A stretch of DNA of 64,000 bases from Candidatus Micrarchaeota archaeon (GTDB lineage: Archaea > Micrarchaeota > Micrarchaeia > Micrarchaeales > CABMGC01). Positions 9,422 through 44,200 of the stretch are shown here, one piece after another; positions within the stretch are counted from its first letter, which is position 1; the number at the start of each line of letters is the position of its first letter. Location: contig JAJZJQ010000005.1 in assembly GCA_021851065.1 (NCBI GenBank), forward strand, positions 44-64,043, given 5' to 3'. A program made the translations under genes and the position numbers. Below the pieces are notes generated by a model. The model was not told where the DNA came from. It was given only the letters and a program-made list of their open reading frames with translations, and made no database searches.

Positions 9422-9600
9422 GCCAGCTGGCAGTTTGATAGGTGACATCCTCCCACAACTGAAGTCTGTGGGCTTCCAATGGTGCTTTTTGATTGGTCAT
9501 CGTGAAGCACCAAGTATAGTTCCTGATTCAGCGGCATCCGCCTTCATGTGCGAAGGTCTTACAATGTCTCCAGAGGCGTGACTTCCCGAATGTCCTTCGG
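9422..9600 (-). ncRNA. Predicted TnpB omega/reRNA (scaffold plus ~20-nt flank-derived guide)
   Basis: Structured right end overlapping the tnpB 3' end (GGTGCT...AGCACC stem and terminal hairpin); 5' boundary uncertain. Confidence 0.6.
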
Positions 9601-10775
9601 TAGCTCGTTTGAGTATGTTCTTTGCCGCATTCAGGTCCCTGTCCATTGACATTGCGCACCTTTGGCAGCCGAATGTCCTTTCTGATAGGGGCATTTCCTG
9701 AATGTTTCCACATCCACTGCATGTCTTTGAGGTGTTGTTAGGGTTCACCCCCAATGCCACGCAACCGGCACTCTCAGCCTTGTATTGCAGCATTTGGGCG
9801 AAGTTTCCCCATGAGGATTCGCTGATGGATTTAGCAAGATGGTGATTTTTCACCATGTTTGCGACTTTGAGTTCCTCGTATGCTATGAATGAGTATGAAT
9901 TCACAAGATTATGGGAGATTTTGTGGAGGCGGTCTTCCCTGATTCTTGATACGTGTTCAGAGTATTTTGCAAACCTGCGTATTGCTCTTTTCCTATTTGC
10001 GCTTCCCTTTTTCTTCCGTGAAATCCTTTGCTGAAGACGTTTCAGGGATTTTCTTTGCAGTCCTGAGATTTCGGCATTCTGGAAGACTTTGCCATCTGAA
10101 AGAGTTGCGTAGTTTGCAATCCCCAAGTCTATTCCGACTGGCTGTTTTCCGTTTGTGAATGGAAATATGTCTTCCTTTTCAGCAGATATGGTTACATACC
10201 ATTCGTCTGATTTTGTCTTCTTTATTGATAGGGTCTTTATCCTGCCCTCAATTTTTCTGTGGTTCACAAAATTTATCCTGCCTATCTTTGATAGTTCAAC
10301 CCTCTTGCGTTCAGTCCTGAATCCCGATTGCGGATATGTCAATGATGAAACGAACTTCCTGAAACGCGGGAATCCGACTTTTTGCCTTTTACCGTTGCGT
10401 TTTTCCTTTGCCCTTCTGAAGAAGTTTTTGTATGCCTTTGAAAGCCTGTCAGGCACATTCTGCAATACCTGTGAATAGACGTCATTGTATTCTGGATGCT
10501 CCTTCTTGAACTTAGTAATCCATTTTATCATATCGTATCTGGTGAAGGTCTTGCCATTATCTTTGAAGTGCTGTTTTGCCTTCTCAAGGAGATGGTTGTA
10601 GAGTTCCTTGCACAGATACATCTGCAGATTAAGAATAGCCTTTTGTTCTTTTGAAGGATACGCCCTGAATTTGTATGTTGTTTTCACGATGGCCATATTT
10701 ACTACTTCATTAAGATTTATACGCATTCGCTTTCATCCCACGATTGGAAATCGTAGGTTTTCCCGCTATGAACCT
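9442..10775 (-). mobile_element. IS200/IS605-family TnpB-only (IS1341-like) element
   Basis: Minus strand: TTTAT followed by left-end hairpin CCTACGATTTCCAATCGTGGG; right end GGAAGCCCACAGACTTCAGTTGTGGGAGGATGTCAC ending in TCAC; lower GC than flanks; no tnpA. Confidence 0.85.
9497..10696 (-). CDS. tnpB: RNA-guided endonuclease TnpB
   Basis: YKFRAYP start, GFPRF, RuvC GIDLG / YEEL / DRDLNAAKNI, zinc ribbon CSGC...CQRC. Confidence 0.96.
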   Translation of the reverse strand: MAIVKTTYKFRAYPSKEQKAILNLQMYLCKELYNHLLEKAKQHFKDNGKTFTRYDMIKWITKFKKEHPEYNDVYSQVLQNVPDRLSKAYKNFFRRAKEKRNGKRQKVGFPRFRKFVSSLTYPQSGFRTERKRVELSKIGRINFVNHRKIEGRIKTLSIKKTKSDEWYVTISAEKEDIFPFTNGKQPVGIDLGIANYATLSDGKVFQNAEISGLQRKSLKRLQQRISRKKKGSANRKRAIRRFAKYSEHVSRIREDRLHKISHNLVNSYSFIAYEELKVANMVKNHHLAKSISESSWGNFAQMLQYKAESAGCVALGVNPNNTSKTCSGCGNIQEMPLSERTFGCQRCAMSMDRDLNAAKNILKRATEGHSGSHASGDIVRPSHMKADAAESGTILGASR

Positions 10776-14076: not shown

Positions 14077-14143
14077 AGGCCACACCCATAGAGGATAATA
14101 TCGATATAGCTTAATATATAACTATCAGGGTATATGCTACTGT

Positions 14144-14230
14144 GCAGGGGTGGCAGAGCCTGGCCAAATGCGACGGGCTTAGGACCCGCTTCCTTTAGAG
14201 GATGCAAGAGTTCAAATCTCTTCCCCTGCA
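14144..14230 (+). tRNA. tRNA-Leu(TAG)
   Basis: GCAGGGG/CCCCTGC acceptor stem, anticodon loop CTTAGGA, long variable arm, GTTCAAATC T-loop, discriminator A. Confidence 0.93.
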
Positions 14231-14369
14231 TATAACTCTAAGGAGCGTGCAACAACGTAAGAGTTTATGATTCTACCGCTTCATGAGCGACCTATCCACT
14301 ACATCCTTCATGTAATTGAAATAGATGAGAAAAGGGGCTTTGGCCCCTTTTGAACCCCCAGCACTAGGG

Positions 14370-15005
14370 TTTCCTCCCCCGACTACGTCGGTGGTATCTC
14401 ACCCCTCGCTGCAGTTTCAATTGAACTGCAACTTTGTCTGTTTACCCTCTTCTCTGCCTGGCATGAACGGTTCATACGAGACATCCTGCCCCCTGATGTA
14501 GTTCTGTCTGATGTTCTGCCCTACCGGCCCGACACTTGTTCCTGTAGGCTGTCCACCCCAGAATTCTTTGCGAGGATTCGCTTTATGAAGTTCGGCATCT
14601 CTTTGAAGACTTTCGATGCAGAGTGTGATTTCAGAATCTGCCTCACCTGTTGCATTGAAAGGTTTGCAGGTACATTTACCATCATGTGTATGTGTGCATA
14701 GTCATCTCCGAAAGCGAATTCCTTTATCTTGACGCCAAATTGCACTTCCACTTCTCGGAAAGCATCTGCAACAACTTTCTGCGTCTTCGGATTCCTGAAG
14801 ACCTTGAATCGGTACTTTGATACCAACACAATGTGTTGAAAATTGTACACCCAGTCCAATTCATTTTTATTCTTTGCATACGCTAAGCTAACCATTGTTT
14901 CACTTCGGCGCGACGAACATCACGTCGCGTCACTATTTTTCATCTGAAAATGCGTATATTTGTTGCAGGATTAGGTAAGCACCCCCGACGAGGTCGGGGG
15001 AAAGC
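14370..15005 (-). mobile_element. IS200-like element (TnpA only)
   Basis: Related subterminal hairpins CCGACTACGTCGG (~14379-14391) and CCCCCGACGAGGTCGGGGG (~14982-15000) flank tnpA; exact ends uncertain. Confidence 0.7.
14417..14895 (-). pseudogene. tnpA: IS200-family Y1 transposase TnpA, frameshifted
   Basis: HIVLVSKYR and HIH (HUH) motifs; after KR near 14575 a shifted frame reads PRKEFWGG...SVG...NYIRGQ, which holds the catalytic Tyr. Confidence 0.85.
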
Positions 15006-15215: not shown

Positions 15216-16601
15216 TTACTCGTAGTTGGCCAATTCTTTGGGCCTGAGCTTGCCCGATTCCACAAGAAGCCTGTGCTGCCTTGAATGGTCGTTGTCGAAC
15301 CTCCTGCTGCACAGCGAGCCGACCATTATTTTTGTAATTACAGTGGAAGTCACTGTGCTGCCTTCCAGCTCCTTTGTTATCCGCTCAGCCACGTCATCTA
15401 TGCCTTTATCGCTAGTTAGCTGCTGGAACAAAACCGTGCCCTCTGGAGCGCCTATATTTCCTGTTAGTAGGTACTTGTTTGCTATCTGTCCTTGTTCAAT
15501 TATGTCCATGAGAAATTTATACCTGTTCTCCTCGACCTGTTTTTCGTATATGTTTGCAATATGAAGCATTCCTATATACTGCGATTGAAGATCTGGGATT
15601 GCTATTGTTGGCCTCACAATAACACCTCTTGACTTCAGGTCGTGGTATGCGTATCTCGCCGATCCGCTGGCAAGCGCGTATTTCCTGTCTATCTCAGAAA
15701 AGCTGGCTGTGCTGTTGGCATTCAGTTCTTTGAGAATGGCAAATTCCCTGCGCATTAGAATGCCGCCAGATTTATAGCTGCGTTTCCTAGCCTTTTCTAT
15801 AGTCTTAAGCGTTGCGTCTATAAACTCGTTTCTCAATGGCACGAAGGAATATGTCATGCCTATAGGCACAAGATTCCACAGCATCCCATGTTTTCCGAGT
15901 TCAGTATTTATCATGAGGCTCCTAAAGTCCTCTATCACTTTGACTGTGTCCGTAGTGTCAAGCAGGTATGCCACAATATCATATTCTCCTTTTGTCCTGG
16001 CTGCAAACTGCACCATGGGGTTTCGTACGAATGCACTCTCGATCTCCGTCTGGCTCGGCGCCTTCCCTTCGAATCTTATCAACAAAAGATAAGGTATGTA
16101 TCCAAGGCTGGACAGGTCCAGTTCCAGTATGTATTTGAGCCCCAGCTGCTTCTCAAGGTTGCCTATCCTATTATATGCTGTCTGCTTGTCGATTCCTGAT
16201 ATCCTTGCCGCTTTTGCTATAGATATCCTCGCATTCATGCTTAATGCAGTCAGGAGCCTAAGATCTGAGCCCTTTGTTGGCATGTTTGTTTTCTGTTGTG
16301 CATCGAGTTCTTGGCCATGCTGCCTGTGCCATATTATCTCGCCTCCGCGTTCAGTGATAAGTGCAGCGGCATTGTCTATGTCATCAGTTGCAGAAAGCTT
16401 CTTCTTTACGAATACTCCTTCATCATTTATCCTCCCCAGATATTCTGCTTTGGTTACGGTGCGTTTTTTGTCGCTGTGCCAGACGCTGGTATGCCTGTAT
16501 ACATAGTACCTGCCGTTCAGTTTCTTGAGCACTATATAAAACGGGTAGTGCCTCTTCAGCTCCTCGAATCTTTCCCGTACCTTGATTGGGTCGCCCTCCA
16601 T
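15216..16601 (-). CDS. Large tandem Lrp/AsnC-like transcriptional regulator with an extra N-terminal domain
   Basis: DLRLLTALSMNARISIAKAARISG...AYNRI..LE HTH, RAM-like GEYDIV, second HTH (ILKELNANSTASFSEI); paralog at 58089-59486. Confidence 0.8.
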   Translation of the reverse strand: MEGDPIKVRERFEELKRHYPFYIVLKKLNGRYYVYRHTSVWHSDKKRTVTKAEYLGRINDEGVFVKKKLSATDDIDNAAALITERGGEIIWHRQHGQELDAQQKTNMPTKGSDLRLLTALSMNARISIAKAARISGIDKQTAYNRIGNLEKQLGLKYILELDLSSLGYIPYLLLIRFEGKAPSQTEIESAFVRNPMVQFAARTKGEYDIVAYLLDTTDTVKVIEDFRSLMINTELGKHGMLWNLVPIGMTYSFVPLRNEFIDATLKTIEKARKRSYKSGGILMRREFAILKELNANSTASFSEIDRKYALASGSARYAYHDLKSRGVIVRPTIAIPDLQSQYIGMLHIANIYEKQVEENRYKFLMDIIEQGQIANKYLLTGNIGAPEGTVLFQQLTSDKGIDDVAERITKELEGSTVTSTVITKIMVGSLCSRRFDNDHSRQHRLLVESGKLRPKELANYE

Positions 16602-16923: not shown

Positions 16924-18069
16924 ATGAAAACAAAAGGAATACAGGCAGCGCAGATGCATGGAATTGATTTGAAGTTCATGGAGGCCGCCATGGAGGAGGC
17001 GCGAAAGAGCATGACGGAAGGTGGAATACCTATAGGCGCTATACTGGTAAAAGATGGTGCGATAATCGGCAGAGGGCACAATATGCGCATACAGACAGGC
17101 AACCGCATGGCCCATGCAGAGATAGACTGCCTTGAGGATGCGATAAGGTCTGCGGGCAAGCAGGCCGTTGAAGGCTCCACATTATACTCGACGCTTATGC
17201 CGTGCCACATGTGCGCCGGAGCGGTAGTCCACTACGGTGTAGGAAACGTAGTCGGTGCAGAGAACCAGACCTTCCCAACCGGCGAGCGGATACTGCAGAC
17301 AGAGGGCGTGAGAACCATAAACCTTGAGCTGGAGGAATACCAGCTAATGCTCCAGGGATACGTTGACGGGCACCAGGAGCACTGGCAAGGCGGTGAAACT
17401 GGAATCAAATCGCTAAGGCGCAAGGACAGCGCGACTCTAGGGGCAAACTGGGCTCTTATAGAGCACGAGCTACAGCGGCTGGTAACACGGCTGCATGCCG
17501 AGCTAGGCTGGTTCGATGACGAGAGCGTTGCAAACACCCCACGGATGGTGGCAGGATTCTACAGGGAACTCTACGAAGAGCATGCTGGGGATCTTCGCGT
17601 CACGCAGTTTGATGGGCCTGCATCAAAGCGCGGCACACTGATAACTCAAAGCAGAATAAAGACGTATTCAATATGCATACACCACATGCTTCCTTTCGAG
17701 TGCAACGTAAGCATAGGCTATGTTCCTGAAAACGGAAGGGTGATAGGGCTGTCCAAGCTATCAAGAGTTGCTGCAAAGTTTGCAAGCAAGCCTACCATGC
17801 AGGAGCGCATGACGCAGGATATAGTAGATTTCCTGCAGGGAGAACTCAAGCCGTCGTTTGTCATATGCCTGGCAGAAGGCATACACCACTGCTCCGTGAT
17901 AAGGGGAGTGTGCCAGCAGAGCGCCACATTCACGACTTCTGCAATGAACTGGAACCATGAGAAGCTGGGAGAAGCCGATGCCGACCGCCTGAAAGAGGAA
18001 TTCCTTGTAACCATAAGATACGCCAATGGTGGAATCTATGACCGTGAAAACAAGACAGACAGGACATAA
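16924..18069 (+). CDS. Cytosine-deaminase-like domain fused to GTP cyclohydrolase I (FolE)-like domain
   Basis: N-half EGGIPIGA, GRGHNMR, HAE, PCHMC; C-half TP.., SICIHHMLPF, IGLSKLSR, QERMT, HHCSVIRGV; single uninterrupted ORF; start uncertain (16912-16954). Confidence 0.9.
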   Translation: MKTKGIQAAQMHGIDLKFMEAAMEEARKSMTEGGIPIGAILVKDGAIIGRGHNMRIQTGNRMAHAEIDCLEDAIRSAGKQAVEGSTLYSTLMPCHMCAGAVVHYGVGNVVGAENQTFPTGERILQTEGVRTINLELEEYQLMLQGYVDGHQEHWQGGETGIKSLRRKDSATLGANWALIEHELQRLVTRLHAELGWFDDESVANTPRMVAGFYRELYEEHAGDLRVTQFDGPASKRGTLITQSRIKTYSICIHHMLPFECNVSIGYVPENGRVIGLSKLSRVAAKFASKPTMQERMTQDIVDFLQGELKPSFVICLAEGIHHCSVIRGVCQQSATFTTSAMNWNHEKLGEADADRLKEEFLVTIRYANGGIYDRENKTDRT

Positions 18070-19384
18070 CGAAGAGCTAATCCCGCTGAGAAGCATTCCT
18101 GGAGTTAATGTATTCCAGTATCCTCCGGCGATGCCTGCAGGCCCAGGGGCCAAGGAGCAGTTTGCCGGAAATCTTGCACTTACGCAGAGGCTTGCACAGG
18201 GAGAGGAGTTCACGATGTTCGTTTCGATACCCTATTGCAAGGTGAGGTGCAACTCCTGTCCATATTTCAAGGCGAAGATGCCAAAGGGCGCAGGCTACGA
18301 CTTCCTCGACCCCTACGTGAGTGCACTGGAGACGCAGATGGCCGCCTATGCGCAGACCGAAAGGTTTAGGTCAGGGACACTTGCCGCAATCTACATGGGC
18401 GGTGGCACCGCATCGCTTCTTTCCGCAGATCAGGTCAGACGGATTGTTGGGTTTGCAAAAAGCGCATTCAGAACAAGCGCAGGAATGGAGATAACCCTCG
18501 AAGGAAATCCATCCGATTTCAACAGGGCCTATTACGCCGAGGTGGTATCGCACGGAATCAACAGGCTGTCGATAGGGTATCAGAGCGCGGATTCTGACAT
18601 ACTTGTGGACAAGCTGGGCTCGCCACACAACGCAAGCGAGGGCTTGCGCTCGCTGCAGGATGCCATTCAGGCGGGGTTCCGCACGGTAAACGTCGATATG
18701 CTATACGGGATACCTGGGCAGAAGCTTGAACAGTGGCAGCGCGATCTTGGAATCGTGATAGGGCTTGGCCCGGAAAGCGTGACCACCTACTCATACATAG
18801 TGTATGGGAATACAGTCGCAGAGCTGCGAATAAGGAAGGGAACCCTCGACGCGCAGATAGACGACGATGAGAAACACAGGTGGTATCTTTACACAAAAGG
18901 CACGTTTGAGGATAATGGATATGTCCTTTACAAAAAAGGGCACTTCATCAGGCCGGGGCACCCGCAGGCATATTCCGATCTTTCCTACAGGGTAGGCACA
19001 GAGAGCCTGGGAATAGGTGCAGGCGCGTACAGCTTTGTCAACGGATACCTTTTCATGTCGGTAGGGAATCCCAAAAAGTTCACGACGGACATGGAACGCG
19101 GACTGTTTACTGCTGCAGATTTCCAGTCCTCGCAAGCCAATACAGATGCACGGATGGCGAAGTATCTCATGCACAGCGTGGCGACAGGCACGATAGACGT
19201 GCAGGAATTCAGGGTAATGTTCGGGACGGATCCAAGGAATGTCTACAGGGCCATATTCGAGGAGATGAGTGCAAAGGGCCTCACCGAATCAGGAGATGGC
19301 TCGATAAGTATGACGGACCGTGGAACCAGGTGGCAGCAGAACATAATGAGCGCGTTCTATCACGAAGGGTTGAGGCGCGCATGA
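18038..19384 (+). CDS. HemN-like radical SAM enzyme
   Basis: IPYCKVRCNSC (CxxxCxxC), YMGGGTAS, EITLEGNP, NRLSIGYQS, DMLYGIPGQ, GIGAGAYS; overlaps the upstream gene. Confidence 0.92.
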   Translation: MTVKTRQTGHNEELIPLRSIPGVNVFQYPPAMPAGPGAKEQFAGNLALTQRLAQGEEFTMFVSIPYCKVRCNSCPYFKAKMPKGAGYDFLDPYVSALETQMAAYAQTERFRSGTLAAIYMGGGTASLLSADQVRRIVGFAKSAFRTSAGMEITLEGNPSDFNRAYYAEVVSHGINRLSIGYQSADSDILVDKLGSPHNASEGLRSLQDAIQAGFRTVNVDMLYGIPGQKLEQWQRDLGIVIGLGPESVTTYSYIVYGNTVAELRIRKGTLDAQIDDDEKHRWYLYTKGTFEDNGYVLYKKGHFIRPGHPQAYSDLSYRVGTESLGIGAGAYSFVNGYLFMSVGNPKKFTTDMERGLFTAADFQSSQANTDARMAKYLMHSVATGTIDVQEFRVMFGTDPRNVYRAIFEEMSAKGLTESGDGSISMTDRGTRWQQNIMSAFYHEGLRRA

Positions 19385-19419
19385 TCAGAAACCGATATAA
19401 GCACCTCTGATGCATTATC

Positions 19420-20745
19420 ATGGGAGTTGATAATTTGGGGGCGTTGCAAAGGGACAGAGTGCCTGCGGTTACGACTGAAGTCGTCAGGAATCTTGCCCTT
19501 ATGAAGCAGGGTCTTACTGCTGGTGATAGGTCCAGAGGCAAGCCATCCATACTCGATGCCATAAAGCAGATACGGCTGCTGCAGCTTGACAGCGTCAATG
19601 TTGTTGACAGGAGCCACTATCTTGTCATTTTCAGCAGGATAGGCACTTATGATAGGACAGACCTTGACTCCCTCCTGTTTCCAGACCGCGCCCTATTTGA
19701 GCAGAGGAGCCACGAAGCGTGTTTCATACCCTCTGAAGATTACCCCCATATCAGCCCTGAGATAACGAACAGGAGAAGCCAGCCAATAAGCAACATGAGG
19801 CTCAGGCAGCTTGGCGGTGACCCAGACTCGGTTTTGCGCGCGGTATTGGAGAGGATAAAAGAAGAAGGGCCATTATCCTCTAAAGATTTCGTAGATGCCA
19901 GGCGCGATGAGAGGAAGGGTTGGTGGGACAGAAAGCCTGAGCGCGTTGCGCTGGAGATATTATGGAGGCAGGGATACCTTGCAGTGCAGAGGCGAGCCAA
20001 CTTCCAGCCGTATTATGATCTGCCTGAGCGCGTCATACCATCCAAATTCAGGAAAGGCAGCCACTCGCTTGCGGACTTCAGGAGGTGGGCGGCAACTAAC
20101 GCCCTCATGGCCCAGGGGATTGCCACCGCTGCAGACGTGAACGACTACTATCGTCAGAACATAAAGGAAACGAGAGCCACGCTTGAGGAACTCGTCGCAG
20201 AAGGCACTGTTGTAAAGATAAGGGTAAGCGGATGGAAGGATGATGCATATGTATTGGCAGGCGATCTTGGAATCGCAGAAAAACTTGCATCCGCAGGGCC
20301 TTTGGCCACACGTACCACGTTACTCTCGCCGTTTGACAACCTCATCTGGTTCAGGGACAGGGCCGAAAGGCTTTTCGGGCTGCATTTGAGGGTGGAGATG
20401 TACACGCCTAAAAAGGACAGGTCATTTGGCTACTATGCAATGCCGATACTGCATGAAGGGGCCATAATTGGGAAGGCGGATCCGAAGATGGCAAGGGACG
20501 ATGGGACTCTGATAATAAATAATGTCGAATTCAATCCGGGCGTGGCTCTTGATGAGGGCCTTGCAAGGTCCGTGAGCGGAGCATTCGACGAGCTTGCGAG
20601 ATTCGGCGGCTGCGATTCCGTAGTTATTGGCAGCCGAGTTCCAGATAGTGTACGAACCATGCTGGAAGGGCATTTGGGCAGTGTGGCTGAAAGCGCCAGG
20701 GCTGGCCATGAACCTAAGCAGGGCATGCGCAGGCTGAAGGCATGA
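19420..20745 (+). CDS. YcaQ/AlkZ (HTH_42)-family DNA glycosylase, YcaQ-like QxD type
   Basis: LLQLDSVNVVDRSH, SRIG.YD, GWWDRKP, YDLPERV, LLSPFDNLIW.RDR, EMYTP..R.FGYYAMPIL. Confidence 0.92.
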   Translation: MGVDNLGALQRDRVPAVTTEVVRNLALMKQGLTAGDRSRGKPSILDAIKQIRLLQLDSVNVVDRSHYLVIFSRIGTYDRTDLDSLLFPDRALFEQRSHEACFIPSEDYPHISPEITNRRSQPISNMRLRQLGGDPDSVLRAVLERIKEEGPLSSKDFVDARRDERKGWWDRKPERVALEILWRQGYLAVQRRANFQPYYDLPERVIPSKFRKGSHSLADFRRWAATNALMAQGIATAADVNDYYRQNIKETRATLEELVAEGTVVKIRVSGWKDDAYVLAGDLGIAEKLASAGPLATRTTLLSPFDNLIWFRDRAERLFGLHLRVEMYTPKKDRSFGYYAMPILHEGAIIGKADPKMARDDGTLIINNVEFNPGVALDEGLARSVSGAFDELARFGGCDSVVIGSRVPDSVRTMLEGHLGSVAESARAGHEPKQGMRRLKA

Positions 20746-21122
20746 CCAGGAAGGCAAGCTGTGTGATCTTCGTTTTCCTGAAGGAAGAACTCTTCCTTGC
20801 AGAGAGACGACCTGAACATGAATCCATAGATCCTGGCAAGCTTGCCCTTCCAGGGGAACATGTAGAACATGGAGAAAGCCTTGAGCAGGCGCTAATAAGG
20901 GGCTGCCGTGAGGAGCTTGACGTTGAGCCTACAAAATACTGGCTTTTCTTCCAGCAAAGATACCTAACGGAGCGTGAGGATCAGGACTGCTACTATTATG
21001 CAGTAACGGGGTGGAAAGGGACTATAAGGCAGGTTGAAGCAGGAGAGCTGGCATGGATCCGATTGGATGAACGCCATCTTGTGGAGACCGGGATCGACAG
21101 GAATGCGATCTTCCATCTCTAG
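20742..21122 (+). CDS. NUDIX hydrolase (MutT-like)
   Basis: PGEHVEHGESLEQALIRGCREELDV (variant Nudix box); ATGA overlap with the glycosylase gene. Confidence 0.85.
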   Translation: MTRKASCVIFVFLKEELFLAERRPEHESIDPGKLALPGEHVEHGESLEQALIRGCREELDVEPTKYWLFFQQRYLTEREDQDCYYYAVTGWKGTIRQVEAGELAWIRLDERHLVETGIDRNAIFHL

Positions 21123-21132
21123 TACAAGCCGC

Positions 21133-21549
21133 CTAGCGCTCCCTGAGGAACTCGTCTATCTGCGATTCTGCTTCCCCTATTGCATCGTATTTTTTGACCA
21201 CCAGGTATTTGTTGCCATCTATTATGGCGGAAAGGTGCCTCCCTGGAGAGGGCCTATAGAGGCAGAGCACGGGCTTCCCAAGCTCCTGCGCCTTTGCAAG
21301 CTCCCATCCCTGGCCATGGGAAGGCGATGAAACCTCAGCAACCACCACGTCCGCTTCCTCCAGCCATTTCAAGTCCCTGTTGTAGATCCTTACGCTGTTC
21401 TCGTGTGAAGGGTCAAGGCTGATCCCCTTATGGTCGGCAAGGTGCCTCGTGAGCACCGTGCCATATCTCTCCAGATGCTCTATCAGCTCAGCATAGGTGG
21501 AAATATCTATTATCCCGCCTCTAACTGAAGCAGAGAAGTAAATATTCAT
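21133..21549 (-). CDS. Nucleoside 2-deoxyribosyltransferase family / DNPH1 (RCL)-like dNMP N-hydrolase
   Basis: IYFSASVRGG, GTVLTRHL, IYNRDLKWLEEADVVVAEVSSPSHGQGWEL, KPVLCLYR, LSAII.G. Confidence 0.88.
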   Translation of the reverse strand: MNIYFSASVRGGIIDISTYAELIEHLERYGTVLTRHLADHKGISLDPSHENSVRIYNRDLKWLEEADVVVAEVSSPSHGQGWELAKAQELGKPVLCLYRPSPGRHLSAIIDGNKYLVVKKYDAIGEAESQIDEFLRER

Positions 21550-21928: not shown

Positions 21929-21960
21929 GGATGCAAGAGTTCAAATCTCTTCCCCTGCAT
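21929..21960 (+). repeat. att-like copy of the tRNA-Leu 3' end
   Basis: Identical to 14200-14231. Confidence 0.92.
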
Positions 21961-22007
21961 CTGCCTGAATGGCAAACGCCAGTGCAGCGGCCAGGTACTT
22001 GGCGGAA

Positions 22008-22508
22008 TTAGCCTTTGGGGATTACAATTCCACCGACAAAGTCATGGAAAAATACCCTTTCTCCTTTATGCCTGATTTCTTCGCTGCCAGTGAATGCGGA
22101 GATATCCCCATTCAGGGAGCTATGATACTCCCAGTCCCCATCCTTGAAGAATTTCTGGCCCCTGGGTTGGAATTGCCCTGCCTTTTCGCCGCTTTTAAGG
22201 GCTTTCTTTAGGAATTCGAAGGTTTCATGTGCAAAAGCGGTGTCTTGTACATGTTTCTCTTCCATGCCCCCGCCATAATTCTGCACCCATACCGGGCGGC
22301 CTTTGTAGAATATTGTCTCTGTCCCCCATGACCTGAACCACCCGGTATACATATCCTTATAGTTCCAGTCCCCTTTTCGGTATGCCAGTGCAGTGTATCC
22401 ACCTTCAACAGTTCCGGCCATTCCGCCAGCATAGGTAGACCGGGATGCTTCTCCAAGAAACTGGTTCAGCTCCCTTAAGAACTGCTCTTGGTTGTTCTGC
22501 TCTGGCAT
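22008..22508 (-). CDS. DUF5680-like protein
   Basis: TYAGG, GDWNYKDMYTG, PVWVQNYGG, PRG, FTGSEEI pattern; family name from memory. Confidence 0.75.
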   Translation of the reverse strand: MPEQNNQEQFLRELNQFLGEASRSTYAGGMAGTVEGGYTALAYRKGDWNYKDMYTGWFRSWGTETIFYKGRPVWVQNYGGGMEEKHVQDTAFAHETFEFLKKALKSGEKAGQFQPRGQKFFKDGDWEYHSSLNGDISAFTGSEEIRHKGERVFFHDFVGGIVIPKG

Positions 22509-22650
22509 GGAATTCCCACCATGATCTTACATCAGGGAATTTATAAAACGGCATCCGTGGAATGCATGTTGCAGCCTGCCTTGTGCAGTAGCTGCGTAAA
22601 GAGCTTGGCTTTGGGGCTTGCCGCCTTCGCAGCAGACATTTCTACGCAAG

Positions 22651-23004
22651 TCACCTTGCCTTAAGGATCTTGCGTAGCCCGCCGTACTTGAAAGTCACAA
22701 GGCCTAGCAGTGCCATGAGAATCCCAGACAGCATGTCCCCCATGGTTAGCAGTATCGGCATCCTGAAAGAGGTTGTGCCAACAGGCAATGAACTCCTGTT
22801 GTATATGCGCCCGCTTGCGGCTGTAGCCTGCTGGCTGCTGCCGGTCTGAGTAGATGCGCCGCCAGATCCTGAGAGGTGCCTTGGCAGAGCCGGCGAGGCG
22901 AAATAGTTGTATGCAGAATATGCGAAGAATGCTGCGCCAAGCGCAATCAGCAGCAATCCAACCATCTCAATGCCTGTCCATCCATTATAGGTTCTTGTAG
23001 ACAT
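22651..23004 (-). CDS. Small two-TM membrane protein
   Basis: Two hydrophobic helices around a Ser/Gly/Thr-rich loop. Confidence 0.65.
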   Translation of the reverse strand: MSTRTYNGWTGIEMVGLLLIALGAAFFAYSAYNYFASPALPRHLSGSGGASTQTGSSQQATAASGRIYNRSSLPVGTTSFRMPILLTMGDMLSGILMALLGLVTFKYGGLRKILKAR

Positions 23005-23148
23005 ATTTACCACTATATTAGTGTGCACCTGAAAGATACACATAAACAAGCAGCACTCCTGCTATTATCACCAGAAATCCCGTTGCAATGGCTATCATCT
23101 GCATGAGCTTCCTGTCTGGGGGCGCCTTCTCATCCATGCTATCGCCAA

Positions 23149-32679: not shown

Positions 32680-32960
32680 GGTCTCCGACAGACAATAATG
32701 GTAACGCATGCTTAAAAAGTGATTGTTTGACGAAGTTGCCGTAAAGTGGCCCGTGATGCCAGGCAAATCAATCGCTGGTAATGCCCTCTTCGCAGCCAAG
32801 CTCTGCTCCGCAGTTGTAGCATCGCCTGTGGCATGCAGACATGTCCTGCATGTTTGAACCGCATAAGCACAGCATGGTTTCGCCCAAGGACAGGTACTCT
32901 TGCCTGTAGCAGAGATATGGCAATTGCCTTAAGTTGCAGCCCTCTACGCCTTAGGCAAGT

Positions 32961-33155
32961 ATGGACTCTGCGGGAAACATATCCAAAACCTTCTTCTATT
33001 TCATAACTAGGATTATAGTCGCTCTAAGCTTGATTTCTGGCATAGTTTTCTTAATCGGAGCAATAGAGAACCCTAGCCAATTAACTCTTTGGAATTCTAG
33101 CATCCTCTTCATTCTAGTAGCGTATATCTCCGCTCAAGGGGCTGAAAAGACATGA
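32961..33155 (+). CDS. Small two-TM membrane protein (start codon lies in the att repeat)
   Basis: Two hydrophobic segments in 64 aa. Confidence 0.45.
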   Translation: MDSAGNISKTFFYFITRIIVALSLISGIVFLIGAIENPSQLTLWNSSILFILVAYISAQGAEKT

Positions 33156-34947: not shown

Positions 34948-35017
34948 TCTAACCGAACCCCGCAACTGAACCCTAACTCCTTTTAAACCCTCTTCTTCCC
35001 ATACTATCAGATAAGCA

Positions 35018-35089
35018 TGGACTCTGCGGGATTCGGACCCGCAACCTTCCGCCTGCAAAGCGGACGCTCTACCGTTGAGCTAAGAGCCC
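35018..35089 (-). tRNA. tRNA-Ala(TGC)
   Basis: GGGCTCT/AGAGTCC acceptor stem with G3:U70, anticodon arm TCCGC-TTTGCAG-GCGGA, discriminator A. Confidence 0.93.
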
Positions 35090-35215
35090 ATTCGGAGCAA
35101 TATTAACATCAATGTATAATAAATGCTTCCTCGACTGCCAAACCCTAAAAGATACCCAAGGTTTATATAGTTTTCTAAGAAAAGTTGCTTAGCTTGCATA
35201 AGCTGGTAGATATAC

Positions 35216-38223: not shown

Positions 38224-41200
38224 CTATGCCCTTCTCCTTCTGGCAGGGGCAGTGCGCCTTGGCTTTGGCTGAGCGCGCCTGCGGCTTGCGAACAGCATGA
38301 TAGCGGCAATAGCCGCAAGAGCTGCAGCTATAGGAAGCGCGCTTATGTTCCCTGTGCTCAGTAGCAGGGCGCCTATCTCGACTATCTGGGCAGACTCTAT
38401 CGGTGCCCATGCATAGTTGAAGGCATTGAACGTGGTGTACTGCGTGCTCTGTGGATTTGCTGCATCGCTAAGAGGCGACTGCTTCACCTGTATTGGCTCG
38501 TTTCCTGGAGCGCCGTAATACTGGGCGAACACATCCGCGCTGCCGCTCCCGCACGCCACCACGTTATCGCTAAAGTATCCCATGGCATTGGTGGTGGCTA
38601 TGTCGAATAGACCCATCTGTGGCGTGCATACGCCCGTGCCGTTCTGATAAAGAGGATAACAGTACTGCGTGTTTCCATTAAGGGCTGGGCATTGATTGTA
38701 TATTCTTGTTGGTGAAGTCGCACTCATTGCGCTTGCTACATCAGGATATATGTTGCATATGGTGTATATCTGGTTGACTGGGGTGAAGAGGCTGTTTGCA
38801 GCAGGCGGGCACTCCCTCATGCTGTTGAATGCAGTATTGTACGTTATTACATTGGGGTTTATCTGGCCAGGGTAAAGGGAATTTGCTGCCAGGGCATTGA
38901 ACGATGGATTGGCAAGCTGGCAGGTGTCGGCCCCGGTGTACAAGCCGTTGACTGAGAAGATGCACTGCGTTGCCTGCACAGGGTGGGTGACTGCATTGTA
39001 TCCTATGGTATCCAGGTTGGCCTGGTAGTATAGGTAGACCGGCTGGTTCTTGAGTGGAATGAAACTCTGGGATATCGGATTTGTCCATCCTGCAGTCCCG
39101 TTCACCACAAGAAGCGTCTGGTTTGAATTGATGGAGTTCACATCCTCGTACACATTGAGGTTTATCGCAGTTATGTTGGCTATATCCGCATCCAGCGGCA
39201 TGTAGTAGGTATTCCCGAACCTGTCATTGTACACGAAGTCCAGCCTGTGGTAGCCATATGCATAAAGAGGGTAAGGCGCAAAAGTAAACGGAGAAGGATA
39301 TACATTGATGTATTTTGGAGGTGAGATCCCGTTGAATGCAACCTGGATCGCAAGGTCGTTTACAGGTATCTTCTCCCAGTTGAACAGCTGGACGAGCAGA
39401 GGGGTTGCAGCGTTTGCTGTGAATATGTTGTTTACCCCGTATACGTTCTGCGTGTTTGTGAGGAATGGATCGCAGCTGGGCTTAACGCACTGGCTCGGCA
39501 CGCTGTTTGCCACAAAATACTCAAAGCCCGGGTTTCTGCCCTGCTTTAGGTCCATCGAATTGTAGGTAAACAGGTAGGTGGCGTTGACTATCGCCTGATA
39601 ATTAGTGGTAGGAGAGACCGAGCTGTTCACGTAAATCGCGCCGAATACCCTGTTTGTGAGTATGTTGTAGAGTATCTGCTGCGGGACGGTCACTGAGCTG
39701 AGGTTTGCGTCGTAGTAGAACGAAGTGTTCATGCCTGACTTTGCATAGGTCTGGCCGCTCTCAAGCTGCGCAAGCCTGGCGTTTGACTGCGTTGGGCTGA
39801 CGGCCTGCGGAGCGGTCTGCTCGGATGTGGTGTAGTTGTACACAGTGAACTGCTCGCTGCCTCCCGGCGGCAGAGCTACTGTTGTAGGGCATCCTGGAGG
39901 GTTTGCGCTGGCGCCTGTTGTGATAGGCTGCGGATTGGAATACGAGTAGGAGTACGTGTAGGTGTATGAGTACGGCATCACGAGATATCCGGACACTATG
40001 CTGTTGATCGATGTCGCTATTCCTGAGAGGCCGTATGCAGGCAGGTTAGGGTTGTTTAGGTAGTTTACAAATTGCTGGGCATTGCTCTGGGCTGAGCTGG
40101 CAAATGCGCCGCTTATGCCAGAGAGCTCGGACTCCACGCCGGCTTGTGTAGGAGCGCCTCCCCCGGAATAGCTGCCAAGGCCACTGGTTATGCCTGATGA
40201 TGAGTAAGTGGTATCAAGGGTGAAGGTCTGGAACGAGCCTATGTTGCTGTCGTACTTGAATGGATTTGGAACCACATAGACTGGTGGATTCAGATTGTCC
40301 ACTTCAGACATTACTGCCGGGCTGTTCTGGCAGTCGCTGCCCAGACCATAATTCCAATCGCTGTAAGTAGCGCTAAATCCAAATGCTATGTAGTTGCCAG
40401 TATAGCATTGAGCAGTGACATGGTCAACGAAACGAGGATATGTGCTGCCGCCTATAGACTTGGTGTAATTCTGTGGAGCCAGGTTTGCTATAAGGAGTTC
40501 CCCTTGCATATTTGTATATGGTTGTGTAGACCCAAACCCATCGGATTGATGCCAGGTCTGCTGTATCTTTGCTACTGAAGGCACGTACAGTGCCATCGTA
40601 TTGTTATAATTAACAGAGAAAGATACCCCTACGACAGGATATGGACCTGAACGGTAGTGTAATAAACCGAAGAATGAAGAACCTGAATTCCAGACACGTA
40701 TCATAGGGCCGAGAGGTTTTAGTGTGCCAGGATAATCTGGCTCTGGAGAACTTATGCAGCCGTCAACAGTTCCTGACTGATATGTTGGGGATGAAGTAGG
40801 GATGAATCCCCCGCTGCATAGGCTGATTACATGTGAGCTCGGATCAAATGGCCCGCACGACGGGCAGTTGTATCCCACTGTTGCAGAAAGTATCCACCCG
40901 TATGGGGGGTAATAGTTGGAACTGGCCTGGGTATACTTGTATGTGGCAGTATGGGAAGGGTTGTAAGTCCACAGGTCGTTGTAGTACGTAGGATCTACTG
41001 GCACATCGACTCCGCTGGAGTTTATTATCCTAAGCACCAGCATGTTGAACCTTATGCCCCCAGTGCAGCCTGAGCTGTATGAGCCCACTATTGGCAAGGA
41101 TGCCTTACTGCATACCTGGCCGCTGACGCCATACCAGTTATCCAGCACATAAAGGTAGCCGTTAACGTCCTCTATCCCAAGCGGGTGGTGGTAGTTGTTG

Positions 41201-44200
41201 TTTCCAGTGGCAGCCCAATCCACTTTGTCCATCACATCCACAGTGCATGTGCCTGCAAATAGAATTATTCCAGAGCACCCGGAAGCCTGCGATTTCAGGT
41301 TAGCCTCTTCTGCATTTATTATCTTGATCATGTTGGCATCTGCAGGTGTGCACGCCTGTTCATGTGAGCTTCCGCACTTGGTAGTGATGCCGTACAGTCC
41401 GCCATTTGCAAGGAAATCGGTTATGTTGAGTTCCGGGGCATTGGACGGAGGCGCGGGAAGCGGATTTCCGGTTGCGCCGGCTTCCTCTAGCGACTGAGGA
41501 TTGAAGTACAGGACATTGCTTGTGGAGTAATTCAGGCTTATGATGCCGCTATACTTTAGGTTCTGGTCGTAGGTGAGTATGTGGCCATCATAATGGTCTG
41601 CAAGGAACACTTCTGAGCCGGTTGGAGAGACTGCTATCTCGCTCCAGGTCTGTCCGTTGGTGCAGGCCTGCGATGGAGGATAAGGATAGTTATCGTAAGT
41701 TGGGCTTACCATGCGCGAATCGAACTGATTGGGGCAGGCAGGCACCGCGTTCTCTGTGATGGGCCCGTTGCCTATGGTGTTGGTTATCTCCATTACCCAT
41801 GTGTTCTGCTTCGGGCTTGAGTCCTGGCCGGTTATAAACACATCGCCAAACGAGTCCACCGAGATGTTGTACGGACTGAACTGGTTGCTTGAAGCTATGA
41901 TTGGAGCGCCGCTGGATGCGGATGTCTGCGATACCCAGGAGTACTTGAACGGAAGCGCGTTTGCAGATATTACGTTTATGACGTAGAGGCTCTGCTGCTG
42001 CATGTTGATCACATTGCTCCAGTAGCCGCTCCACTCGTTGTTGAACCCGGAAATGGTGTTTGACTGCACTAGAGAATTAGGCTGGTAGAGCGATGTGTTA
42101 AGCTCTCCTGAAGGTATCACCTTTAGCACGTAGATATTCATCCCATATTGCTCCAGGGCCGACTGGTACTGCTGCTGTTGCGCGCTGGGATACGAAGATG
42201 CGGGAGCCATAGACAATGCGGATGGATTTGTGCCCAGTACGAATATGTAACCGCTTGGAATCGAGGCAATGGACTGCGGGTCTATCTGCATCTGAACGCC
42301 CCCAGCAGCAGTTACAGGGATAGTTGGAGGGGTGACGGTTCCGGCCAGTATCGGATCCTGGAGGTCCTGGAAGCTGCCGCTTGATGGAGCCTCGGTTGGC
42401 TGTGGCCTTATAGAAGCAGTATTAGCGCTTCCTGTGTCACCAGTGTAGCCTGCTGAAGTAGGTTGTTGCTGTGCTGTGTTTTGAGATTGTATAGGAGAAG
42501 CAATAGCCGTTGGTGCAGTCGGCTGAAGGTTCACTCCTGCCCAGAAGCTATCCCCTGCAGCGCCGCCCCCGTTGGGACAGGTTGGAACACTGTATGAGCT
42601 GGGCATATACTGGCAGTATGCATTGTCTCCATTGCCGCCGCAGGCTGATGGGGCATAAGTGCACCAGGCATTGAAGTTGGTGCCTCCGGATTCACTGTAG
42701 GCCCATGAGAACGAATATGAAGCTGTGAATGCATCTGATTGTGAAACCTGTGGATTTGCACCTGAATCTATCTGCACTATTCCCTGTCCGCAATGGGTCT
42801 GCGATGGTTGTGTAAGATAGAGATTATCGTCGCATCCGTTGCCTGTTGGTTGCAGTCTTCCTGGCTGCATCCCGCTTTCCGCCATGCTTATTGCGACAAT
42901 TATCTGAGCAGAGATACCTTCTGGGAAGCCCGCTGCAACTGCACAGTCATAGGCAGCCTGAACAGAAAGCATATCGGAAGATAGGGACGAGGTATGATAT
43001 GGAAGATCTGGGGTGCTAGGACACTGGCCATTCGATATCGGAGGTGGAGAAGTGCATTGACTACCTGTGCAGCTGATGAGGCTTGGCTGGCCGCTTGGTT
43101 CGGGCACCTGCGTGCCAAGTACGTTCTGGGGCGATGTTAGCGTTACAAATGGACCGCTGGCAGGGAAGTAGGACAGCTGGGTGGCAGAGGAAGTTGCAGA
43201 CTGCGCGCATGATTTTGTCGTGCAGTCCTGGGCCAGCGCATTGGCAAGCAGCATGCCCTGCGAATCGAGCGGTATAGGATCTATTTTGGCAGCCGGATCC
43301 TGGTAGTTCTGCGGGCTGTAAATATCGTAGGAGAGCGGGTAATTGAACTGATTGCCCGGAGCGGAATTGGTCACGTTAGCGCTGTACACAAGATACGGGA
43401 ACAGATTTACCCCGCTAGTGCCGCCGGAAGGGGCAGGGAACTGGATCTGCTGGTTGGATACGCCGTCAAGCGTGACCTGGTAGTTGTATGTGTATGAGTA
43501 GGAGCATGTGAGAGGCGCAAGTTGCTGCGCAGGCTGTGACTGCTGCGCAAATGACTCTGCACGCGACTGTGGAGGGACGGCGAGGTTTGTGCTGGCAGAC
43601 AGGCAGCTCGGGTTGGTTGGCTGGCAGACCTCGGCAGTTGGAGCCCCCTGTGTGCAGCCACCGTTGCTGCCGCATTCAGCGCTACCGGTAGGATTGTTGC
43701 ATGACCAGACATAGAGGCCTGGGCATCCGCTCACGGAACATGAACCTGCCTGGCAGCTTGCCTGGTGGCCGGAGGTTCCTCCGCCGCCGCTTGGAGGGGG
43801 GCTTGAGAGCTGCGTGGTGTATACGCCCTGCTCGGTGCCCTTTACGGTAAGCCCCTGGAACTGCTGGCTTACTCCCGGATTGCCAAGATCAAGGTATATC
43901 GCGTTCCATGACCACACGCCATGCTGGCCGTCCACGCGGTCGCCGTTGAACAGGTATGAATTTGTATCGAAAGAGGATGAGATTATTGTATTTCCGTTGT
44001 CGATAAGCTCTGGCGAGTAGCCTATATTGTTTATCGATGCATAGACAGCGCCATATAGGCTGAAGATTGCATTGCCTACCCCGTATAACCCCGAAGCGCC
44101 TGGAGACTGCGGAGGATATGCAGTAAGCTCGCCTGTTACAGGGTAGTCGGATGGAGATGAGGGCGCCTGGCATGCGTCTCCTGCAATGAGCCAGTTGCCG

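Follow-up and report, generated by a model that had tools for sequence, protein, structure and literature searches.

We report that a gene cluster at positions 16924-21549 of a 64,000-nucleotide stretch of contig JAJZJQ010000005.1, from a Candidatus Micrarchaeota archaeon (the whole stretch is hereafter called the window), is a variant of a conserved, horizontally moving metabolic module whose distribution is patchy and island-borne. The cluster encodes a fusion of a deaminase with a FolE-type GTP cyclohydrolase I (GCH I) domain, a HemN-like radical S-adenosylmethionine (SAM) enzyme, a YcaQ-type DNA glycosylase of the HTH_42 family, a small NUDIX-family protein and a DNPH1-like nucleotide hydrolase, and all five families named in an initial annotation of this DNA are present according to Pfam and NCBIfam. 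The recurring part is a core of three genes, not five, namely the deaminase, the radical-SAM enzyme and the YcaQ-type glycosylase, and it occurs in archaeal and probably also in bacterial contexts. From its gene content, we predict that the cluster is a small-molecule pathway with an embedded repair glycosylase.

The coordinates bear out the description of four tightly packed genes followed by a convergent fifth. The first two genes overlap by 44 nt (32 nt if the second begins at its second ATG), a 35-nt gap separates the radical-SAM gene from the glycosylase gene, the glycosylase and NUDIX genes overlap by 4 nt, and the DNPH1-like gene converges on the operon 10 nt from the NUDIX gene. The order deaminase, radical SAM, glycosylase is found again in G195, a genome of the same taxonomic family as the genome with the window (G000), at 46-58% identity to the window proteins, and in G029 at 52-56% identity, as well as in the metagenome loci L105, L101 and L103 (L and P numbers denote loci and proteins of this analysis); L107 and L098 show only the radical-SAM/glycosylase pair. 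Across unrelated contexts the three-gene order is conserved at 23-57% identity. In G195, a divergent homolog of a helix-turn-helix (HTH) protein is followed by an MptE-like-deaminase fusion, FolE, the radical-SAM enzyme, the glycosylase, FolB, a ComB-like phosphatase and an alpha/beta hydrolase, and the G029 cluster runs from the deaminase through the radical-SAM enzyme and the glycosylase to a VOC/glyoxalase-family protein. L105 has the three core genes, FolB and a convergent VOC gene. L103 encodes a canonical FolE, a deaminase-radical-SAM fusion, a QueE-like radical-SAM protein and the glycosylase, with PTPS and a FolE2 fragment on the other strand, and L101 carries a deaminase-radical-SAM fusion, a QueE-like gene and the glycosylase gene on a 621-kb contig that is probably bacterial.

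Seventeen loci hold a member of the radical-SAM family, of which five could not be judged on the downstream side (the sequence is cut in L096, L106 and L119 and extends for only 167 and 231 nt in L097 and L100). Of the 12 assessable loci, 8 have a glycosylase gene downstream of the radical-SAM gene, the others being L099 (with 581 nt downstream), L102, L104 and L108, and a deaminase is encoded upstream or fused in six of the ten judgeable loci. Nine more radical-SAM/glycosylase pairs share the same longest-contig size, which is an indirect sign of linkage. Additionally, the deaminase is fused in three ways, to FolE (the window and P0008), to an MptE-like domain (G195 and P0009) and to the radical-SAM enzyme itself (7 of 74 radical-SAM homologs). 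We conclude that the grouping of the three core genes is more than chance. The co-occurrence of all five families proposed in the initial annotation thus holds for the deaminase, the radical-SAM enzyme and the glycosylase, and often for FolE, but not for the NUDIX and DNPH1-like genes, which were found in none of nine other loci and were seen only in the window's version of the cluster. With these two genes missing from the other loci, protection at three levels (DNA, triphosphate and monophosphate) cannot be upheld as a trait of the system.

The radical-SAM family was found outside the window's own genome in 3 of 117 members of the taxonomic family and in 3 of a 400-genome sample of the phylum, where a fourth match to the radical-SAM query, at 25% identity, is not a family member. 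The glycosylase is encoded in 4 of the 118 genomes of the taxonomic family, three of which carry the cluster intact. In the remaining one, G398, the gene is a frameshifted copy in two overlapping frames (L188, G398:C6, 9178-10354) with no deaminase, radical-SAM or FolE gene nearby, and this copy looks like a decayed remnant of the cluster. The cluster genes were absent from all 12 congeners searched, and a sample of Verrucomicrobiota gave no occurrence in 401 genomes. Among 2.9 million viral contigs, the best radical-SAM match was 29% identical and no relative of the glycosylase was found, and the best match among plasmids was 29.6% identical. PADLOC gave no specific match, returning only a generic deaminase match, a NUDIX match and winged-HTH matches.

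The deaminase half of the fusion has an intact zinc site, with HAE at residue 64 and PCHMC at residue 93, and it matches yeast cytosine deaminase in the PDB at 5.3e-32 over residues 15-154 of the 159 submitted. The alignment keeps the GRGHNMR pocket stretch along with HAE and PCHMC, at about 45% identity to the yeast enzyme, and judged by this alignment the N-terminal half is a close relative of yeast-type (FCY1-like) cytosine deaminase. Three positions past the conserved Trp, the window deaminase has Gly and P0008 has Asp; that Asp is an important residue. The FolE half keeps its zinc and catalytic motifs, with CIHH at residue 251 and HHC at residue 321, and aligned to solved GCH I structures (PDB match 1.9e-22) it retains GLSKL, QER and H-x-C..RGV. 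It scores 126.3 bits against a Pfam cut-off of 27, and falls below the NCBIfam FolE equivalog cut-offs (123.3 versus 162 and 106 versus 181.6); the G195 FolE is also below cut-off (137 versus 162), while that of L103 passes (265.5). Among 5.8 billion protein clusters only one further deaminase-FolE fusion was found, P0008, at 61% identity. None was confirmed among the 150 best HMMER matches from 1.84 billion proteins: two of the 150 matched in two stretches and are both double deaminases by Pfam, and eight others checked by Pfam (two short FolE proteins and six longer FolE-matching ones) have no deaminase domain. The fusion was not found in 12 congeners, and a scan of genome contigs with it returned 80 loci, each with a deaminase or FolE gene on its own and none with a radical-SAM gene beside it.

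The proposal that the radical-SAM enzyme is not an ordinary HemW or HemN is sustained by several results. All of its NCBIfam scores are under cut-off, the best being HutW/ChuW (204.6 versus 400), with hemN at 102.4 bits versus 324.95 and HemW at 149.5 versus 205.4. HemN carries a fourth cysteine after CxxxCxxC, and the motif in the window, CKVRCNSCPYF, has none. The best PDB match is the class C methyltransferase NocN (85.2 bits, compared with 73.4 for HemN), and the enzyme belongs to a family of about 70 proteins that stands apart from HemW-like matches at 24-29% identity. Its sequence thus identifies it as HemN-like but neither HemN nor HemW. A quick maximum-likelihood tree (77 rows) puts the members linked to a glycosylase in at least five separate places, unites L102 and L104 (other contexts, no glycosylase) in one clade and groups L108 with the outgroup. 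One of the L102/L104 contexts has a pyridoxal-phosphate enzyme, a cyclodeaminase and a 2993-residue protein, and the other a second radical-SAM gene and a thiamine-pyrophosphate (TPP) enzyme. Neighbours of the enzyme in the ESM Atlas were generic HemW, STM4012 and ChuW-like proteins only, and a predicted complex of the radical-SAM enzyme with the glycosylase scored 0.01.

The glycosylase scores 216.8 bits against PF06224 (cut-off 25.9) and matches PDB 9zd6 at 6.6e-50 over residues 20-402. An alignment of 14 homologs, among them the distant proteins of L101 and L103, shows no variation at Q55 and D57, down to 23% identity. A Q-aliphatic-D motif has been described as YcaQ-like and a (Q/H)-aliphatic-Q motif as AlkZ-like (PMC9040887), and by this motif the window enzyme is of the YcaQ-like type of HTH_42. 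The NUDIX protein reaches 51.8 bits in Pfam against a cut-off of 21.1 and has weak MutT-type matches; compared with G-x5-E-x7-R-E-U-x-E-E-x-G-U, its box is not canonical, having one extra residue and RGCREE in place of REUxEE. The DNPH1-like protein matches Rcl/DNPH1 in the PDB at 1.1e-30 over residues 2-135, with its GWEL aligned to GYEL. The Glu of this G-x-E-L stretch is the nucleophile in DNPH1.

Enzymes of the GTP branch are encoded in five of the six clusters with context, defined as those with at least 2 kb of surroundings, the exception being G029. FolE is found in the window, G195 and L103, FolB in G195 and L105, an MptE-like HPPK in G195 (and in P0009), QueE-like proteins in L101 and L103, and PTPS in L103. 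The G195 FolB is above the NCBIfam cut-off and the MptE-like domain reaches 82 bits, and the QueE-like proteins score 98-106 bits against cut-offs of 200-300. No PTPS, TGT or DHPS was found in the four carrier genomes (G000, G195, G029 and G340), with the same searches matching 10 to 14 of 14 controls, and the cluster is thus neither a folate, a methanopterin nor an archaeosine/preQ0 operon. This agrees with the initial annotation, which had set the cluster apart from standard preQ0 and folate operons, but sister clusters do carry FolB, MptE-like, PTPS and QueE-like genes. A scheme of folate-independent thymine synthesis, by cytosine deaminase and C5 methylation, was dropped because ThyX and ThyA show no pattern: G000, G195 and G015, the last of which has no cluster, encode ThyX, G029 and G010 do not, and ThyA is absent from all five. 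As a separate observation, ThyX is thus present in three of five genomes although DHPS was not found in the four carriers.

We next considered what the module might make. From the domain identities, intact motifs, fusions, gene order and distribution that are observed, we infer a substrate, a product and a protective role for the glycosylase. We suggest, with a probability of about 0.4, that the pathway starts from GTP and ends in a deaminated, C1-alkylated heterocycle harmful to guanine N7, against which the glycosylase is a built-in safeguard. In the manner of the GCH I-like enzymes of azanucleoside pathways, the FolE domain would open GTP, giving dihydroneopterin triphosphate or a ring-opened aminopyrimidine, and the intermediate would be trimmed or activated by the NUDIX protein in the window or by the phosphatase, FolB and MptE-like pyrophosphokinase in sister clusters. 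The fused deaminase would hydrolyse an exocyclic amine on the pyrimidine ring, and the radical-SAM enzyme would alkylate an sp2 carbon with a one-carbon unit from SAM. Either the product or an intermediate, being electrophilic or an antimetabolite, would damage DNA at guanine N7, and the YcaQ-type glycosylase would remove the N7 lesions as self-protection. The DNPH1-like hydrolase and the NUDIX protein of the window may serve nucleotide-pool clean-up or the release of a free base. The FolB and MptE genes suggest a pterin intermediate, and the yeast-type deaminase, together with the precedents of PtnA and AzaE, suggests a one-ring pyrimidine (PMC7674941; PMC13749301).

Parts of this scheme have counterparts in described systems. 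A full-text search of the literature found no paper on this gene combination. C10P (CC-1065) and YtkT (yatakemycin), from the pathways of DNA-alkylating antibiotics, are HemN-like class C radical-SAM enzymes that attach a carbon taken from SAM and are clustered with a repair glycosylase for the resulting adducts. The window likewise joins a radical-SAM enzyme and a DNA glycosylase in one cluster, a likeness of description and not of sequence; the glycosylases of the C10P and YtkT clusters are of the AlkD/YtkR2 family, and the substrates there are pyrroloindoles of large clusters. The nearest described system is the 8-azaguanine cluster of Streptomyces (ptn/8-azg), which is reported to have a GCH I-like gateway enzyme, a HemN-like enzyme, 8-AzgG, that is needed, and an N-hydrolase of nucleoside monophosphates by which the base is set free (PMC7674941). 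It shares with the window the pairing of a GCH I-like with a HemN-like radical-SAM enzyme, the likeness to 8-AzgG again being by description, not sequence. However, a nitric oxide synthase and a pump belong to the 8-azaguanine cluster, and in the island that holds the window's cluster no other open reading frame (ORF) of at least 60 residues could be either; the N-hydrolase of the Streptomyces cluster is LOG-type where the island's is DNPH1-type; and that cluster lacks a deaminase and a DNA glycosylase. The initial annotation knew of no described cluster with this composition, and none was found, but the 8-azaguanine cluster, as far as it is described in the part of the source drawn on here, is a partial precedent (PMC7674941).

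More broadly, GCH I homologs are described as gateways to azanucleosides (PMC13749301). In the azacitidine cluster, the GCH I-like AzaE is reported to give a triaminopyrimidine and to start a route from GTP to a free base resembling cytosine (PMC13749301), and the window FolE is also divergent and is fused to a domain of cytosine-deaminase type. That cluster's cupin dioxygenase, TPP decarboxylase pair and phosphoribosyltransferase are not present in the island, and its self-resistance is a major facilitator superfamily pump where we propose a glycosylase. The 7-deazapurine pathways (FolE-QueD-QueE-QueC, toyocamycin/tubercidin and Dpd) share FolE, and also PTPS/QueD in L103 and a QueE-like protein in L101 and L103; in the four carriers, however, no PTPS or TGT/DpdA was found, in searches that did not take in QueC, and the Micrarchaeota clusters carry FolB and MptE instead. 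With the folate/methanopterin branch (FolE, NudB, FolB, FolK/MptE), G195 has in common FolE, a phosphatase, FolB and an MptE-like protein, and the window FolE and a NUDIX protein, but DHPS is missing from the four carriers and the window has neither FolB nor HPPK. The deaminase, the putative class C radical-SAM enzyme and the DNA glycosylase occur in no known folate operon.

The window glycosylase is of the same Pfam family as AlkZ and YcaQ (HTH_42) and is set among biosynthetic-type genes, as AlkZ-like self-resistance genes are. AlkZ-like HTH_42 glycosylases have been described as self-resistance genes in the genotoxin clusters of azinomycin B, hedamycin and trioxacarcin (PMC9040887). For the glycosylase, self-resistance of the AlkZ type is the closest analogue in function. 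The partners of the AlkZ-like genes are polyketide and non-ribosomal peptide synthetase genes, whereas the window enzyme is accompanied by a deaminase, a HemN-like radical-SAM enzyme and pterin enzymes. The motif of the window enzyme is that of the YcaQ type, which in Streptomyces, within the part of the source drawn on here, is never found within 20 kb of a biosynthetic cluster (PMC9040887). The same source counts only 12 HTH_42 proteins in archaea (PMC9040887), and the hosts of the present module include archaea.

Several points weigh against a toxic heterocycle with built-in protection. There is no exporter and no further recognisable tailoring enzyme in any of the six clusters with context, and the accessory genes vary (FolB/MptE, QueE-like/PTPS, NUDIX/DNPH1), which is a poor fit to one product. 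In G029 the core genes stand without FolE (searched with the window query) and without PTPS, which means either that supply from GTP is dispensable or that the cell imports the substrate. The deaminase resembles an ordinary free-cytosine deaminase, pointing to a one-ring pyrimidine over a pterin. A symbiont genome of roughly 1 Mb would be an odd home for a toxin pathway, and toxin plus immunity is a mechanism that we infer. Finally, the Streptomyces YcaQ-like proteins with a Q-x-D motif are described as never near biosynthetic clusters and as acting on simple N7-alkylguanine lesions, in the portion of the source on which we draw (PMC9040887).

Two alternatives would keep the genes in one metabolic pathway with another purpose. 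One is that the module makes a non-canonical pterin cofactor, with FolE, a phosphatase or NUDIX protein, FolB and an MptE-like HPPK leading to 6-hydroxymethyl-dihydropterin diphosphate and on to a deaminated, C-methylated pterin or lumazine, the glycosylase being a passenger or a guard against a reactive intermediate. The G195 operon does hold a full branch of this kind (FolE, ComB-like phosphatase, FolB and MptE-like protein), FolB recurs in L105, and the MptE-deaminase and FolE-deaminase fusions bind the deaminase to the pterin branch. The NUDIX gene beside FolE resembles the case of NudB, the dihydroneopterin triphosphate pyrophosphatase, and MJ0619, reportedly a radical-SAM pterin C-methylase of methanopterin synthesis, also counts in its favour. 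We nevertheless consider such a cofactor unlikely: with DHPS not found in the four carriers there is no known acceptor step, a module restricted to 3 of 117 sister genomes is spread too thinly for a cofactor that the cells require, no pterin gene accompanies the core three in G029, and the deaminase is like cytosine deaminase and unlike known pterin deaminases. The glycosylase, as the most constant partner, would also be left unexplained.

The other alternative is a sanitation and salvage funnel, in which the glycosylase (from DNA), the NUDIX protein (from (d)NTPs) and the DNPH1-like protein (from dNMPs) would free an abnormal base for the deaminase and the radical-SAM enzyme to convert or destroy. 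It would suit a nucleotide-scavenging symbiont, or give resistance to an outside base analogue, and the small host genome (1.13 Mb) and the lack of an exporter agree with it, as do the yeast-type deaminase, which is predicted to act on free bases, and the close match of P0005, the window's DNPH1-like protein, to DNPH1, labelled in the PDB as a 5-hydroxymethyl-dUMP N-hydrolase. The radical-SAM enzyme has the catabolic ChuW/HutW as its nearest NCBIfam relative. However, two of the three entry points are confined to the window, NUDIX and DNPH1 being absent from all nine other loci, and the NUDIX box is degenerate. FolE, FolB, MptE-like, PTPS and QueE-like proteins, including two deaminase fusions, would be unexplained, and the core three genes also stand on a 621-kb contig that is probably bacterial. 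A funnel of this kind is therefore improbable in our estimate.

We think it very unlikely that the module serves DNA base modification, in which the pathway would build a GTP-derived, deaminated and C1-alkylated base and the YcaQ-type HTH_42 protein, as its DNA-acting end and not as an enzyme of repair or immunity, would install, exchange or erase that base as an epigenetic mark or as protection from viruses or restriction, in a system independent of TGT/DpdA and mobile between archaea and bacteria. The glycosylase gene is set inside the operon: in G195 and L105 it is flanked by the radical-SAM gene and FolB, and in L101 and L103 it follows the QueE-like gene. This position would fit such a role, as would the strict co-occurrence in the taxonomic family and the lack of an exporter. 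L103 moreover joins FolE, PTPS and a QueE-like protein as in 7-deazaguanine DNA-modification clusters, but the Micrarchaeota clusters are without QueD and QueE, and the four genomes have no TGT/DpdA-like gene. The viral contigs (2.9 million) held no relatives and PADLOC no specific match, and the HTH_42 enzymes covered in the part of the source used here are known solely as hydrolytic glycosylases (PMC9040887). That the island simply gathered unrelated nucleotide-metabolism genes of no common function is extremely unlikely, since the nonconserved partners (NUDIX, DNPH1 and the HTH protein) and the varying accessory genes speak for it but the three-gene order kept across unrelated contexts, the three kinds of fusion, the overlapping start and stop codons and the broken state of the lone G398 glycosylase speak against it, and chance grouping is largely refuted for the three core genes.

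YcaQ-like glycosylases are widespread, and we know of no established native role or lesion for them. Here a YcaQ-type gene is fixed in a small operon with a radical-SAM enzyme and a deaminase, and most clusters add pterin genes as neighbours or in fusions, which together provide a concrete, testable source of its substrate. With this module, specialised metabolism based on GTP, as known from azanucleosides and 7-deazapurines, would reach into DPANN archaea, and a system of three to five genes is small enough for reconstitution. If the product is a DNA-reactive or antimetabolite heterocycle, the HemN-like enzyme would offer new chemistry; otherwise, the cluster would represent a new pterin or DNA-modification pathway. 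Should the glycosylase write, swap or erase a DNA base, the native pathway with which YcaQ-like enzymes work, long sought, would come to light in this module.

Coordinates of the cluster genes and of the surrounding island features in the window.
Feature	Position	Strand	Evidence
tRNA-Leu (anticodon TAG), putative integration target	14143..14231	+	ARAGORN; Rfam tRNA 50 bits
IS200-like Y1 transposase, 124 aa, inside the island	14521..14895	-	Pfam Y1_Tnp 3.4e-15; NCBIfam transpos_IS200 55.2 bits vs cut-off 55
461-aa protein with AsnC-type winged HTH	15216..16601	-	Pfam HTH_AsnC-type, HTH_24; divergent from the operon
Deaminase-FolE fusion	16924..18069	+	Pfam dCMP_cyt_deam_1 1e-23 and GTP_cyclohydroI 1.1e-36, one frame
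HemN-like (putative class C type) radical-SAM enzyme	18026..19384	+	Pfam Radical_SAM; CKVRCNSC at 71, GGGTAS at 125
YcaQ-type HTH_42 DNA glycosylase	19420..20745	+	Pfam AlkZ-like PF06224 8e-64; QLD at residues 55-57
Small NUDIX-family protein, non-canonical box GEHVEHGESLEQALIRGCREE	20742..21122	+	Pfam NUDIX 1.1e-13
Predicted DNPH1/Rcl-like 2'-deoxynucleoside 5'-phosphate N-hydrolase (P0005)	21133..21549	-	Pfam Nuc_deoxyrib_tr 9.9e-12
Right att-like direct repeat, 32 nt	21929..21960	.	100% identity to the tRNA-Leu 3' end (repeat search)

The cluster lies in a putative island on tRNA-Leu bounded by attachment (att)-like sites, as the initial annotation had proposed. The left copy is the final 32 nt of the tRNA gene (14200-14231), and an exact copy of this 3' end closes an island of 7.7 kb that holds the cluster. 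The source genome measures 1.13 Mb in 36 contigs and is 87.5% complete, and the window encodes archaeal eRF1, RFC and CDC48. The island was found in four DNA sequencing runs of one study, labelled mine drainage metagenome, whose public contigs end or start at the repeat (21931-21959); no RNA sequencing run is listed as holding it. The contigs of the four runs showed no excision joint across the island and no empty site. Between the repeats the ORF list and Pfam revealed no integrase, with an IS200-like Y1 transposase there instead. None of 12 congeners yielded a match to the right flank of the island (21961-23100), which left no basis for reconstructing an empty attachment site. Rfam found only tRNA, and no riboswitch, on the island and on L101, L103, L105 and L095.

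The gene for the 461-residue HTH protein lies 322 nt upstream of the deaminase-FolE gene in the opposite orientation. A divergent HTH protein is therefore present as the initial annotation had noted, but its reading as a cluster-specific regulator is not borne out, and we rejected it as a dedicated regulator because its family is multi-copy and widespread: homologs occur in 93 of the 118 genomes of the taxonomic family, a count that takes in G216, which is flagged as unpublished. The family occupies six places in the window's genome, including 15216-16601 (-) and 58089-59486 (+) of the window and contigs C27, C13 and C36, and up to 14 places in G264. Many of the copies sit no more than about 2 kb from the end of a contig, and the copy divergent from the G195 cluster is 42% identical to that of the window. 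The protein may belong to a repeated mobile element, and possibly provides the mobility function of this integrase-less island.

Further features stand near the core genes in other loci. A VOC/glyoxalase-family gene with weak bleomycin-resistance-like N-terminal similarity adjoins the glycosylase gene in L089 (13741-14151, +) and L105 (3668-4078, -), and the VOC copies in the G029 and L105 clusters are 67% identical. Pentapeptide-repeat proteins are encoded a few kb from the radical-SAM gene in L105 (8222-8776) and L102 (9030-9707). In L096 (G340:C49; 916-1461, -, and 1573-2235, +), a 181-residue ORF with no Pfam match stands upstream of the radical-SAM gene in the usual place of the deaminase, and a class I SAM methyltransferase is encoded divergently from it.

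Elsewhere in the window, outside the island, an IS605-type TnpB with a Cas12f-like TNB domain is encoded at 9497-10726 (-), separate from the IS200-like Y1 transposase. A 37-nt stretch at 32957-32993 recurs 2 kb away at 35013-35049 with 78% identity; the latter copy overlaps the end of a tRNA-Ala gene (35017-35090, minus strand), the repeats flank a low-GC stretch (0.38-0.46), and the pair may be the remnant of a second tRNA-borne insertion. The window also contains an ORF of 2088 residues at 38224-44490 (-).

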